Assembly: GCA_028288545.1 (NCBI GenBank)
Contig: JAQBNQ010000298.1
Location: forward strand, 1 to 33,542
Length of the DNA: 33,542 nt
From: Bacteroidota bacterium
GTDB taxonomy: Bacteria > Bacteroidota > Bacteroidia > Chitinophagales > LD1
Reading direction: 5' to 3'
A program made the translations under genes and the position numbers. The stretch's first letter is position 1. The number at the start of each line of letters is the position of its first letter. Positions 1-11,158 of the stretch are shown here, in pieces. The notes below the pieces were generated by a model that worked only from the letters and a program-made list of their open reading frames with translations, did no database searches and was not told the origin of the DNA.

Positions 1-3
1 CAC

Positions 4-3000
4 ATGAAAAGAAGATTACTAATTCTTCTCGCTATTGTTTTCTCCGCCCTAACCGGAGCAATGGCACAAGCACCCCAAAAGATGAATTACCAGGCGGTAG
101 TTCGCGATGCTACGGGGGCTACTTTACCGGGCGGCACAAACGTAACGGTTCGTTTTCAGATACATGATGGCTCTACTTCAGGTCCGGTTGTATTTCAGGA
201 AACAAATACAGCTGTAACTAACCAGTTTGGTCTTATCACCCAGGTTATTGGTGGTACAGGCAACCTGGCAGCGGTTAACTGGGGTAGTGGTGGAAAATAC
301 CTCCAGGTAGAAATAGATCCTTCAGGTGGAAGCAACTTTACTGATATGGGAACTTCCCAACTTATTAGCGTTCCTTACGCTTTGTTTGCTGCTAATAGCG
401 GTGGAGGAAGCACAGGAGCAACTGGTGCTCAGGGCCCACAAGGCCCTCAGGGATTAGCAGGCGCAACAGGTCCTCAGGGTCCGGTTGGTGCTCAAGGTCC
501 TGCAGGAGCCACTGGTGCTAACGGCGCAACAGGCTCAACTGGTGCAAACGGTGCTACCGGACCTCAGGGTTCGCAAGGAGCTACCGGTAATGATGGAAAT
601 ACCGGCGCAACCGGTGCAAGTGGAAACGATGGAGTAACCGGCGCAACTGGTGCAACCGGAAACGACGGTGTAACCGGCGCAACTGGTAACGATGGCCCAA
701 CTGGTGCTACAGGAAATGATGGCGTAACAGGCGCAACAGGTGCTACCGGAAATGACGGAGCAACTGGTGCTACTGGTAATGATGGACCTACTGGTCCAAC
801 AGGTCCTACCGGCCCAACAGGTGCAGGTGGTGGCCCAACAGGTGCAACTGGTGATACCGGCGCAACAGGAGCTACAGGAAATGATGGCGCAACAGGCGCA
901 ACTGGTAATGATGGAGTAACCGGCGCTACTGGTGATACCGGTCCTACAGGCCCTACTGGTCCAACAGGTTCAGGTGGCGGTGCAACTGGCGCAACCGGTG
1001 CAACTGGTAACGATGGTGCTACAGGCGCAACAGGTAATGACGGCGTAACCGGCGCTACTGGTGATACAGGTCCAACAGGCCCAACAGGTGCTACAGGATC
1101 AGGCGGTGGAGCAACTGGCGCAACAGGTGCTACAGGAAATGATGGTCCAACCGGTGCAACTGGCGCAACAGGATTTGGTGCAACAGGAGCAACTGGTGAC
1201 ACTGGCCCTACCGGACCTACAGGTCCAACAGGATCAGGAGCCGGCCCTACTGGTGCAACTGGAAATGATGGCCCTACAGGCCCTACAGGAGCAACTGGTA
1301 ACGATGGAGGCACAGGTGCTACCGGAAATGATGGTGTTACAGGCCCAACTGGTCCTACAGGCCCAACTGGTGCAACCGGAGCTACTTATGTTCCAGGTAC
1401 AGGTATTTCTTTCAATGTAGATACTATCAATTCTGTTTGGACAGTCGCTCCAAACGGAACGGATATCTTTAATAATAACACAGGTAATGTTGGTATTGGT
1501 ACTGCAGCTCCTCAGGTAAAACTGGAAGTTGAAGACAATGTTTTGTTTAACGGCGTATTTGCCGGTAGCCTTTCAGGAAATGGCTTGGCTGTAGTTGGTT
1601 TAGGTAATAACGGTGCTCCTGTAACAGGAATCTATAACGCTAACAACTCAGGCGTTTGGCAACCGGATTTATTTGTTATTCAAAATGGCTTTATAGCTGG
1701 TCCAAGAGCTGATTTCACTATTGATCCTAACGGTAACGTAGGGATTGGAACAGGTACACCAGGTGCTCTTTTCGAAGTATCTTCTGTAAATGAAATATTC
1801 GGACAGAACCTTGTACATTTATATGACAGTTTAGGTAATATTGGCTTCCCTCAGGCAGTTTTGAGTATTGATAACGGTGGTGGTGGTTATTCTTTATTAT
1901 CTAACAAATGGGGATTTGATGAGTCTTTTGTTATTAACAAAGACAATACAGGTTCTACCACATCAACAATGGTTGTTACTGGTAATATGGACACCGGAAT
2001 TCCAACTTTGGAAGTTGATGCCAGCACTAACGTTGTAGCAGCACTCTTTAACGGTTCTGTTACTATTAATGACGGAACAGCAGCTACAAACAGAGTACTT
2101 GCCTCGTTAGATGCTAACGGTAATGCTCAATGGATGGACCTTAGCGCACTTGGTGGCGGCGGTGGCGGTGGCTACTGGGCACCTGCTACTAACGGTACTA
2201 CCGGCAACACCGATATCTACAATAACAACAGTGGTTATGTAGGTGTAGGAACTGGTGGAGCAGCTGTAATGCCATTCGAATTTATGGATGCAACAGATTA
2301 TGCTAATTTCCTTATTACAGGTAATGGTGCTTCAGAAGTTCTGATTGACAGAGCATCTGCAGGCGGCCAAGGTGGCGTATGGTGGGGAACTGGTTATGCA
2401 AGCGGTTCAGGCACCGATGCATGGCTTATAGGAACTTATGGTGGTGTTAACGATAACATGCATATATATAACCCGGCTTTGGGTGATGCGTTAACTGTAG
2501 ATATAGCTACAAATTACATTGGTGTTAATTCAGCTGCACCTACTCATCAGTTTGAAGCGTTAACAATCGATGCTACCGGAGCCATTTATGGCGAAAACGA
2601 TGGTTCGGCTGATTTAACAAACACGATTGAAGGTTACAACAATACTTTTACAACCGGTGCGGGTACCCAGGCAATTGGTGTGTACGGACATTACAATGGA
2701 AGCAATAACTATGGTGTAGGTGTTTCAGGTTTGGGCTGGTTAGGTACACAAGCTGCACCTAATTTTGATTATGGTGTTTATGGTAGCGGTAATGACGCGG
2801 GTGTTTGGGCTAATAACAATAGCTTCTTTAACCCGGCTTTAGTTGCTGAAAACTTAGATACATCAGGCGGAACTTATTCTTTCGCAGCACGTTTCCTTGG
2901 TTTCCTTCAAATTCAGGATGGCACAGAGGCTTCTAACAGAGTTCTTACTTCTGATGCAAGTGGATATACTTCATGGCAGGATCTTAGCGCTTTAGGTACT

Positions 3001-4128
3001 ACTTACACTGGCGGAACAGGAATTGCTATTGATCCTTCAAACGTGATCAATTCAGTTTGGACACAAAGTGGTTCTACTATATACAATAACAATGGTGGAC
3101 AGGTTGGTATTGGTATTACAGCTCCTGTAGCTTATGCAAACGCACAAGCTGACGCCGGTACAGTTTATTCAACCGGTTTGAGCGGAACTACTTCTGTGAG
3201 CCCGGGAAGCTCTTTCAGTAGTGTTTTCGGAAACATGTTTGCCTTTACTGAGGCAGCAGGTTTACATGGTTTGTCAAACAACTCAGGCACTACCATTTCT
3301 TATGGTGTAATTGGTGATAACACAGGGGCAGGACTTTATGGTGTAGGTGTTATGGCTACTTCTTCTGGTGCTTCTACTGCTAACAATTACGGTTTCTACA
3401 GCTTTGCAACAGGTGCAGCTGCATACAACATTGGCGGTTACTTAGATGGTGAAGGCAGTGGGGGTGTAGGTAACGTGGGTGTTCTCGGTTCGGCTGGTTT
3501 TACTAATGATGGAGCTTTTAACATTGGTGTTTGGGGTCAGGCTAATGGAACCGGCGCAGTTGCTGGTCAATTTGATGGTGCTACTATTGTAAACGGACAA
3601 GTAACTATTAATGATGGTACCGCAGCAACTGGTTTTGTATTAACTGCAAACAGCATTGGTGGCGACGCTAGCTGGCAGCCAGTAGGGGCTCTTACTGATC
3701 CTTCTACAAACACAGGATTCCAGGCAAATGATGGTTTTGCTACTGTACCGGATGGAACAAGCACTGCTGTAGTTTATGATAATGTAGTATTTGATGATGG
3801 TGCAAACTACGATGCTAGCACAGGAACTTATACTGCACCAAGTTCAGGTGTTTACCATTTTTCGGCTAACATTTATTATTTAACATTTTCAGCGAACGGT
3901 GTTGAATCTGATATATACATTGCCGTGAACGATATAAATTTTGGAGAAGTTGCTGCTAATACAACTCTTTCAAGTACTTCGTTATTCAGCAATAGCATCA
4001 GCTTGGACATTAAATTAGCTGCTGGCGACAAAGTGAATATTGTGGCATTGAATTTTAGCGGAAGTACTGAAATTGCAGGCACCTCTAATGTTAATTACTC
4101 AACTTTCTCAGGTCATAAAGTATACTAA
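4..4128 (+). CDS. Secreted collagen-like fibre protein (1374 aa): conserved N-domain, ~330-aa Gly-X-Thr collagen-like stalk, beta-rich repeat body, C-terminal gC1q/TNF-like globular head
   Basis: ATG at 4 followed by a signal peptide ([23 protein letters not shown]). The N-domain NYQAVVRD...[11 protein letters not shown] is shared with the ORFs at 5791 and 9189. Residues ~133-461 are Gly-X-Y triplets (GAT/GPT/GND). GNVGIGTxxPxxKLEV-type motifs recur in the body. The last ~135 aa carry gC1q hallmarks ([57 protein letters not shown]). Confidence 0.9.
400..1386 (+). repeat. Collagen-like Gly-X-Y coding tandem repeat (9-nt periodicity with higher-order ~130-147-bp units)
   Basis: ggn-nnn-acn triplet periodicity is read directly from the DNA. 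Register-breaking G(A/S)GG(G/A) interruptions start at 820, 967, 1096 and 1231. The repeat creates shadow ORFs on the opposite strand and in other frames. Confidence 0.9.
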
Positions 4129-11105: not shown

Positions 11106-11126
11106 TTAGAACCTTATTTAAAATGC

Positions 11127-11158
11127 AAGGGGATGATTTTTGATCATCCCCTTTTTTA
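11127..11158 (+). terminator. Rho-independent terminator
   Basis: ggggatgat (11129-11137) pairs with atcatcccc (11143-11151), followed by tttttt. Confidence 0.8.

Follow-up and report, generated by a model that had tools for sequence, protein, structure and literature searches.

The 33,542-nucleotide (nt) contig JAQBNQ010000298.1 (GCA_028288545.1), the whole stretch of Bacteroidota DNA analysed here and hereafter called the window, carries at positions 1-11163 a cluster of genes for collagen-like fibres and for small secreted proteins, termed mini-proteins, that end in a type IX secretion system (T9SS) sorting domain. The cluster comprises three units, all on the plus strand and each closed by an intrinsic terminator: fibre 1 with an open reading frame (ORF) of 231 amino acids (aa), mini-protein 1 with fibre 2, and mini-protein 2 with fibre 3. 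Our subject is the pairing of mini-protein with fibre and what it suggests about the display of such fibres on the cell surface.

Gene organization of the cluster

Fibre 1 (1374 aa; 4-4128) consists of a signal peptide, an N-terminal domain (N-domain; nt 67-405) resembling that of the MAT fibres of Bdellovibrio bacteriovorus, a collagen-like Gly-X-Thr stalk (nt 406-1386), a beta-rich body and a C1q/TNF-like head (nt 3757-4116); its unit closes with a terminator of a 13-bp stem and a T-run (4894-4933; 4894-4923 before the T-run). In the first of the two-gene cassettes, mini-protein 1 (174 aa; 5233-5757) comprises a signal peptide, the conserved core of an N-terminal module (N-module; residues Q20-P68, nt 5290-5436), a linker of about 20 aa and a T9SS type-A C-terminal sorting domain (nt 5497-5754), and is followed by fibre 2 (898 aa; 5791-8487), in which signal peptide, MAT-like N-domain (nt 5854-6201), collagen-like stalk (nt 6202-6558) and beta-rich body lead to a C-terminal domain resembling those of phage tail fibres (nt 7864-8484). 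The second cassette repeats the arrangement with mini-protein 2 (173 aa; 8632-9153), of the same architecture (N-module core nt 8686-8832), and fibre 3 (638 aa; 9189-11105), again with signal peptide, MAT-like N-domain (nt 9246-9575), stalk (nt 9576-9926), body and phage-tail-fibre-like C-terminal domain (nt 10566-11102). Cassette 1 ends in a terminator with an 11-bp stem containing 6 GC pairs (8516-8552 including the T-run), and cassette 2 in one with a 12-bp stem (11127-11163).

An original prediction, made from the letters of this DNA, had described three secreted fibres with a common N-domain, a Gly-X-Thr stalk and VGIG-type motifs, two of them preceded 33-35 nt upstream by T9SS proteins of 173-174 aa and followed by canonical terminators. 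All of this is borne out: the alignment and motif counts given below agree with it, the gaps measure 33 nt (cassette 1) and 35 nt (cassette 2), both mini-proteins pass the two T9SS sorting-domain models, and the stem-loops at 8516-8542 and 11127-11153 are each followed by a T-run. Neither a terminator-like nor a promoter-like site was found in the mini-to-fibre gap of either cassette.

Since the contig starts 3 nt ahead of the fibre 1 start codon, any mini-protein gene 5' of fibre 1 would fall outside the visible sequence. The closest N-terminal relative of fibre 1 (locus L015; 74% identity) has a mini-protein gene 32 nt upstream, and three further relatives (L096-L098; 71-72% identity) have none; an exact-match search of metagenome contigs with the first ~70 nt of the window matched nothing.

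The fibres are probable relatives of the MAT family

Alignment of the three fibres revealed a common N-terminal region consisting of a Sec signal peptide, with a Gln near the predicted cleavage site, and an N-domain of about 110 aa (NYQAV(V/A)R...SVPYAL(F/Y)A) that is ~45-60% identical between any two of them. This domain matched nothing in Pfam, and profile sequence searches found no relative in the PDB. When the N-domains of the window fibres and of one related fibre were searched without their signal peptides, NF053851 (Bdello_MAT_N) was the sole NCBIfam match, with E-values of 1.2e-12 for fibre 2 (47.9 bits), 7.6e-6 for fibre 1, and 3.2e-4 and 1e-6 for the other two.

The stalks span aa 135-461 of fibre 1 (71 Thr), aa 138-256 of fibre 2 (27 Thr) and aa 130-246 of fibre 3 (23 Thr), and Thr is by far the dominant Y residue of all three Gly-X-Y (GXY) stalks. 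Fibre 1 passes the Pfam Collagen model PF01391 at 111.8 bits (cut-off 27.2); fibre 2 (26.0) and fibre 3 (23.0), with runs of 10-17 GXY triplets inside regions of ~120 aa, fall narrowly under it. The DNA of these regions (406-1386, 6202-6558 and 9576-9926) has a local GC content of 0.51-0.54, against ~0.40 elsewhere, and yields long spurious antisense ORFs, an example being a minus-strand one of 249 aa at 564-1313, rich in Pro and Val. The motif (x)VG(I/V)G..P...L.V occurs twice in fibre 1, three times in fibre 2 and once in fibre 3.

The original prediction had called the three fibre genes paralogous; N-domain and stalk are common to all of them, but the C-termini differ. Fibre 1 carries at aa 1252-1371 a C1q domain (PF00386, 36.4 bits; gathering threshold 23.7) that also matched C1q-like protein 3 in the PDB (E 5e-6), whereas fibres 2 and 3 have in common a C-terminal domain of ~180 aa that fibre 1 lacks. 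A tblastn search with the latter domain reached remote relatives among the minor tail proteins and tail fibres of phages; the AlphaFold2 model of the fibre 3 tip (pLDDT 85.7) retrieved from BFVD phage proteins of the tail-fibre, minor-tail and collagen-repeat kinds (E 6.5e-10 to 1e-5) and, in the PDB, weak matches to the C-termini of tailspikes and pyocin fibres. Among 99 related fibres of other genomes at least five classes of tip were distinguished, including an S74/coiled-coil class, a C1q-like class, the fibre 2/3 type and a FWNG..L.F type, besides others.

The MAT (mosaic adhesive trimer) fibres of Bdellovibrio were described as trimers whose N-terminal domain is invariant and whose tips can be exchanged, the latter of S74, TNF-like, C-type lectin and novel sandwich types; members from the FCB-group, among them a 704-aa 'collagen-like' Saprospiraceae protein, are included in Supplementary Table S3 of that work (Caulton et al. 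2024, PMC10769870). The mosaic of tips seen here, with a C1q head and a tail-fibre-like domain in one window and further types among the 99 relatives, fits this picture. Speaking against membership, the N-domains scored 20.5-47.9 bits against a curated cut-off of 60 and covered positions 14-107 of the 162 in the profile. Taking the N-domain match together with the mosaic tips, we judge from their sequences that the window fibres are probably Bacteroidota relatives of the MAT-type family, in a collagen-stalk variant, and not a new kind of fibre. The statement of the original prediction that no characterised system has this organization finds no support as regards the fibres, whose likely family was published in 2024 and already extended to collagen-like proteins of Saprospiraceae. 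The collagen-like GXY repeats, together with C1q and S74 domains, known trimerisation modules, imply a trimer.

No signal for T9SS was detected on any of the fibres: searches of Pfam and NCBIfam found neither PF18962 nor TIGR04183 nor a type-B sorting domain in fibres 1-3, and none of the 99 related fibres matched a hidden Markov model built from the C-terminal domains of the mini-proteins. The same Pfam and NCBIfam searches of the window fibres revealed no lipobox, autotransporter or other visible alternative export signal.

Two further features of the fibre C-termini were observed. The domain common to fibres 2 and 3 has 2435 homologues, of which the best 120 are 58-76% identical and span Acidobacteriota, Ignavibacteria, Rhodothermales and Cytophagales. 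Such conservation across phyla is unusually high for a receptor-binding tip; it may be that the domain serves in trimerisation or folding instead, or that it has spread horizontally. Short Lys-rich tails (...GKGEKKK, ...LSGAKK, ...KTAKKR, ...KEAKKK) end many fibres of the family, the window sites being 8470-8484 and 11088-11102; through their charge they could serve in surface binding or in sorting.

The mini-proteins are small T9SS cargo with a near-invariant module

Both mini-proteins pass PF18962 (47.5 bits for mini-protein 1 and 41.8 for mini-protein 2; cut-off 27) and TIGR04183 (35.9 and 39.3 bits; cut-off 23), which, with their Sec signal peptides, identifies them as T9SS type-A cargo. 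The signal peptide and T9SS domain of the original prediction therefore stand; the uniform module of ~75 aa that it placed between them does not, being divided into a conserved core of 49 aa (Q20-P68; Q-x-L-(S/T)-P-x-V-I...S-x-T-V-G-E...L-T-Q-G-F-Q-Q-P) and a variable linker of ~20 aa.

All 69 residues of module and linker are identical between mini-proteins 1 and 2, although their synonymous sites are saturated (proportion of synonymous differences, pS, 0.73). A 300-nt stretch inside the two genes has 82% DNA identity, and the ratio of nonsynonymous to synonymous change (dN/dS) between the two sorting domains is 0.12. The saturation indicates that the two genes are old duplicates, and the N-module is under extreme purifying selection. 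Over 74 mini-fibre pairs the module core was the best conserved element, with a mean pairwise identity of 63%; the fibre N-domain averaged 51% and the sorting domain 31%.

Searches with the mini-protein retrieved 362 relatives, the closest from metagenome-assembled genomes (MAGs) of Chitinophagales; nearly all of the best 120 were ~173 aa long, and these were at least 61% identical and came from MAGs of Chitinophagales and other Bacteroidota. An exhaustive search with the 68-aa N-terminal portion gave 721 clusters at 50% identity, of which nearly all the best 150 were proteins of 160-177 aa with the module at about residues 20-75. A divergent class, whose module ends in ...LQGVQQPYEI or ...GVLQP, precedes fibres in four loci (L120, L158, L114 and L128; upstream of the fibre at ~3931); the first module model had missed this class, so the family is broader than the 721 clusters.

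The module core had no match in Pfam or NCBIfam even at E 10, and none in the PDB or in phage genomes. In the AlphaFold2 model of the mini-protein the sorting domain forms a beta-sandwich (pLDDT ~90) and the N-module scores below 50; Foldseek matched the sorting domain only, to generic Ig-like sandwiches. The low value predicted for the module is compatible with a segment that would fold on its partner. The MAT N-domain profile has 162 positions, and we also considered whether the module might supply its missing C-terminal portion; this was rejected, given the lack of any NCBIfam or Pfam match at E 10, and profile-profile comparison of the module with the fibre N-domain detected no homology (probability 0.15%).

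Mini-protein and fibre genes form a conserved unit

In order to survey linkage, one genome per GTDB species was scanned with the mini-protein alignment; at least 529 matched stretches encode relatives, and the 80 matches kept all derive from Bacteroidota MAGs (Chitinophagales, Sphingobacteriales, Bacteroidales and Flavobacteriales). The count was based on 79 kept loci, three earlier loci and the window, which together hold 90 unique mini-protein genes. Two of these lie at contig ends, and for 74 of the 88 testable (~84%) the next gene on the same strand encodes a fibre N-domain; about 13 are orphans. Measured from the stop codon of the mini-protein gene to the point where the N-domain match begins (counting the signal peptide as part of it), the distance is 4-130 nt, with a median of ~30. 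In one orphan locus (L019) a 1290-aa protein lacking the fibre N-domain sits in the fibre's place.

These data support a conserved two-gene unit of mini-protein and fibre, and the co-occurrence in other Bacteroidota for which the original prediction had proposed a search is present. Its repeated two-gene unit is upheld as a conserved pair, though the pairing is not one-to-one, as the fibre-first survey below makes clear. It had further pointed to gldM-gldN about 6 kb away: gldM (17584-19203) and gldN (19274-20104) do lie 6.4 kb from the cluster, but this proximity is not kept in the other mini-fibre loci, where the neighbours are unrelated. The genes flanking the unit are unrelated housekeeping genes that vary between genomes, from which it follows that the conserved unit is just mini-protein and fibre and that the position of gldM-gldN is incidental.

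The module adjoins fibre genes in other architectures

The N-module was also encountered outside mini-proteins. It heads a 3250-aa T9SS cargo, composed of Big_2/NHL repeats and a Por_Secre_tail, that is encoded directly after two fibre genes (L086; 6418-8465), and it heads proteins of ~270 aa that end in a dockerin and carry no T9SS signal at all. One of the latter, P0475 (L093/L094; L093 5001-5822), has the gene for a 590-aa S74 fibre upstream and another fibre gene downstream, both with a MAT-like N-domain. In P0482 the module is present as a tandem duplicate. Genomic context was followed for the 3250-aa cargo and for P0475, with P0399, P0484 and P0482 left out. In the loci so followed, fibre genes adjoin the module whatever its anchor, which is our strongest argument that the job of the module concerns fibres; and because the dockerin variants have no T9SS signal, the role of the module cannot be only to supply one.

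A putative socket for fibre display

The presence in the window of gldM and gldN, both passing their NCBIfam equivalog cut-offs, indicates that the organism has a T9SS. Type-A cargo of this system exits SprA sorting-domain-first on PorV and is then released or linked to surface lipopolysaccharide (LPS) (PMC10994853). From the genomic evidence, our best reading of the mini-protein is that of a surface-anchored adaptor. The long genes would give rise to homotrimeric surface fibres in which a base domain carries a triple-helical stalk and a beta-rich shaft, with an interchangeable tip at the distal end, and the mini-protein would be a dedicated T9SS cargo in which the 49-aa N-module is the sole functional part besides the sorting domain. 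The module would bind the conserved base domain of the fibre; the T9SS would recognise the type-A C-terminal domain of the mini-protein and hand it to PorV for release or linkage to surface LPS; and the mature mini-protein would be a membrane-tethered socket of ~70 aa holding the fibre base. Possibly it would also take the fibre bound to it along through the SprA translocon. In turn, adhesive tips would project from the fibres to bind other cells or particles. Physical binding, the export route of the fibres, their anchoring at the surface and their adhesive role we infer in each case from the genomic evidence. We regard it as an even call whether the mini-protein is such a socket, exporting and/or anchoring fibres through the base domain. 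A more specific proposal would make the mini-protein both an anchor and a detachable export signal for the T9SS: its module would clamp the base of the fibre trimer in the periplasm, the fibre would be pulled through SprA behind the C-terminal domain of the mini-protein, and the complex would end up tethered to LPS. We put this proposal forward tentatively, as possible but rather doubtful.

Several results weigh against the socket. In a fibre-first sample of 66 fibre genes, taken from metagenome contigs that reach far enough upstream, a module gene lay directly upstream of 25 (~38%, a count that includes the divergent '...LQGVQQPYEI' types found only after iteration of the model) and within 4 kb of another 13, and 28 had none within that distance; conversely, there are the ~13 orphan mini-protein genes. 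Within a genome, paralogous modules are 78-100% identical (most at least 94%) beside N-domains that are 45-85% identical, and near-identical modules next to differing fibres point to a partner that is generic and not fibre-specific. The module-to-N-domain distances correlated with r 0.41, compared with 0.52 for the sorting domain and the N-domain, and this mirror-tree style comparison gave no signal beyond phylogeny and no fibre-specific co-variation. A shallow alignment may be all that lies behind the low pLDDT of the module. Finally, MAT fibres are surface-exposed in Bdellovibrio, an organism without T9SS (PMC10769870), so that the base domain does not intrinsically need a mini-protein.

This last observation favours an alternative in which the mini-protein would be an anchor only: the fibres would cross the outer membrane by an unrelated route, and the LPS-tethered mini-protein would capture them at the surface. 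The many fibre genes with no mini-protein gene adjacent, which are the majority, and the dockerin variants, whose modules carry no T9SS signal, fit it as well. On the other hand, the fibres bear no alternative export signal that we could see (lipobox, autotransporter and type-B sorting domain are all lacking), and the mini-protein gene is placed so tightly upstream, at 4-50 nt, as to suggest that the two proteins are translated together and form a complex early. We consider this alternative unlikely.

Less probable still, in our estimation, is a mini-protein that would act independently, as a small surface peptide or an assembly factor that the T9SS secretes and that is co-regulated with the fibre without binding its base; it could conceivably act as a spacer, regulate self-adhesion or aid folding in the periplasm before being discarded through the T9SS. 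The lack of a co-variation signal, the orphan genes, a module that is not modelled as a folded domain and the lack of homology between module and N-domain would all be in keeping with such a peptide. The mini-protein, the 3250-aa cargo and the dockerin protein, however, are unrelated architectures, and in all three the module has fibre genes beside it, something that would be difficult to account for if it had no direct functional link to the fibres.

A remnant of a prophage or tailocin tail fibre, with the small gene as its tail-fibre assembly protein, is scarcely credible: PHROG tail-fibre matches (mostly via the collagen repeats), the kinship of the tip domain to phage tail-fibre tips and four N-domain loci on IMG/VR contigs, two of them with divergent mini-protein genes near HNH and replication genes, are outweighed by the lack of any match to the mini-protein or N-domain in 50,697 phage genomes and to the mini-protein alignment in 2.9 million viral contigs, by a window without capsid, tail or baseplate genes, by flanking housekeeping genes that differ per genome, and by the Sec signal peptides of both proteins and the T9SS sorting domain of the mini-protein. 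The two divergent cassettes of mini-protein and fibre on IMG/VR contigs (L091 5434-7374 and L092 5305-6726) lie near genes for an HNH endonuclease, replication initiation and a methyltransferase; no virion genes were seen in the IMG/VR contigs with N-domain loci, and mobile elements may now and then carry the cassette.

Returning to the proposal of a detachable export signal and anchor, its consequences would be twofold if it is true: the mini-protein would be the first trans-acting (piggyback) T9SS cargo adaptor and the first identified surface receptor for a MAT-type base domain. In the literature, of which our coverage was incomplete, we found no description of such a partner of MAT or collagen-like fibres, nor of trans-acting or piggyback T9SS targeting, and the conserved mini-protein partner looks undescribed. 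MAT-type fibres have been proposed as prey- or surface-recognition devices of predatory bacteria, and the element that binds them to the surface is stated to be unknown (PMC10769870); a near-invariant T9SS cargo coupled to a MAT-type base domain in more than 500 loci of species-representative genomes is a candidate for this missing anchor. The pairing also raises the puzzle of how large trimers without a sorting domain exit a cell whose main surface route, the T9SS, requires one. Should the module work as a socket that can be moved between proteins, engineered fibres or tips might be displayed with it on the surfaces of Bacteroidota, and it could help to annotate thousands of 'hypothetical' or 'collagen-like' proteins.

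Other features of the window

The 231-aa ORF 3' of fibre 1 (4177-4872, plus strand) encodes a secreted low-complexity protein rich in Lys, Ala and Gln that matches no Pfam or NCBIfam family; homologues were found in none of 82 related loci, and it is probably not part of the conserved unit. Ahead of it, 3' of fibre 1 and within 4129-4933, is a GC-rich hairpin (GGGCAGGGCC...GGCCCTGC).

Directly after cassette 2 lies the gene for a 666-aa PF10136 'SpecificRecomb' protein (11219-13219; 570 bits), apparently a multi-pass membrane protein, a close homologue of which (E 8e-275) is encoded at 12689-14693 of L019, ~4 kb downstream of the orphan mini-protein gene. Neither gldK nor gldL is found upstream of gldM-gldN in the window. 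The region upstream of gldM is taken up instead by a pair of paralogous ORFs (at 13370-14791 and at 14809-16410; phmmer E ~1e-22 between them) without a Pfam or NCBIfam match, with a minus-strand ORF (16740-17438) between this pair and gldM.

Comparison with known systems

The window fibres are most like the MAT fibres of B. bacteriovorus, having in common an N-terminal base domain, to judge from its sole and sub-threshold family match (NF053851), a long fibre taken to be trimeric, TNF/C1q-like and S74 tips, several paralogues per genome and a Sec signal peptide. They differ in their Gly-X-Thr collagen-like stalk, where the shaft of Bd2133 is beta-helical, in a host that is a T9SS-bearing member of the Bacteroidota and has not been shown to be predatory, and in the small T9SS cargo gene that precedes many of the Bacteroidota fibre genes, no such partner having been described for MAT.

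Among proteins that combine a collagen stalk with a head (C1q/adiponectin, Bacillus BclA, streptococcal Scl and Legionella Lcl), the GXY stalk is common to all; the Thr-rich Y positions recall BclA, and the C1q/TNF-like head of fibre 1, putatively trimeric, recalls the C1q/adiponectin type. BclA is anchored in the basal layer of the exosporium and Scl by LPXTG, whereas the window fibres differ in both anchoring and N-domain, and their scores against the NCBIfam models of Lcl and Scl are far under the cut-offs and driven by the repeats. Phage tail fibres, which rely on downstream chaperones or on S74 intramolecular chaperones, are approached through Peptidase_S74 on related fibres and through the tip of fibres 2 and 3; here, by contrast, the small gene is upstream, its product is predicted to be secreted by the T9SS, it is absent from the phage databases searched, and there is no virion context.

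The mini-protein, with its signal peptide and PF18962/TIGR04183 domain, resembles T9SS type-A cargo such as the gingipains of P. gingivalis and ChiA of F. johnsoniae, which are released by PorV/PorU or anchored to anionic LPS (A-LPS). Its passenger, however, is only ~70 aa long and has no enzymatic or adhesin domain, and the protein likely to be functional, the fibre, is encoded separately and has no sorting domain. In pairs of the SprB/SprF type the adhesin itself has a type-B sorting domain and the partner (PorP/SprF-like) is an outer-membrane beta-barrel, whereas the window fibre has no sorting domain and its partner is a small soluble type-A cargo. What the two arrangements have in common is a surface adhesin, putative in the present case, that is genetically coupled to a dedicated partner for T9SS-dependent display.

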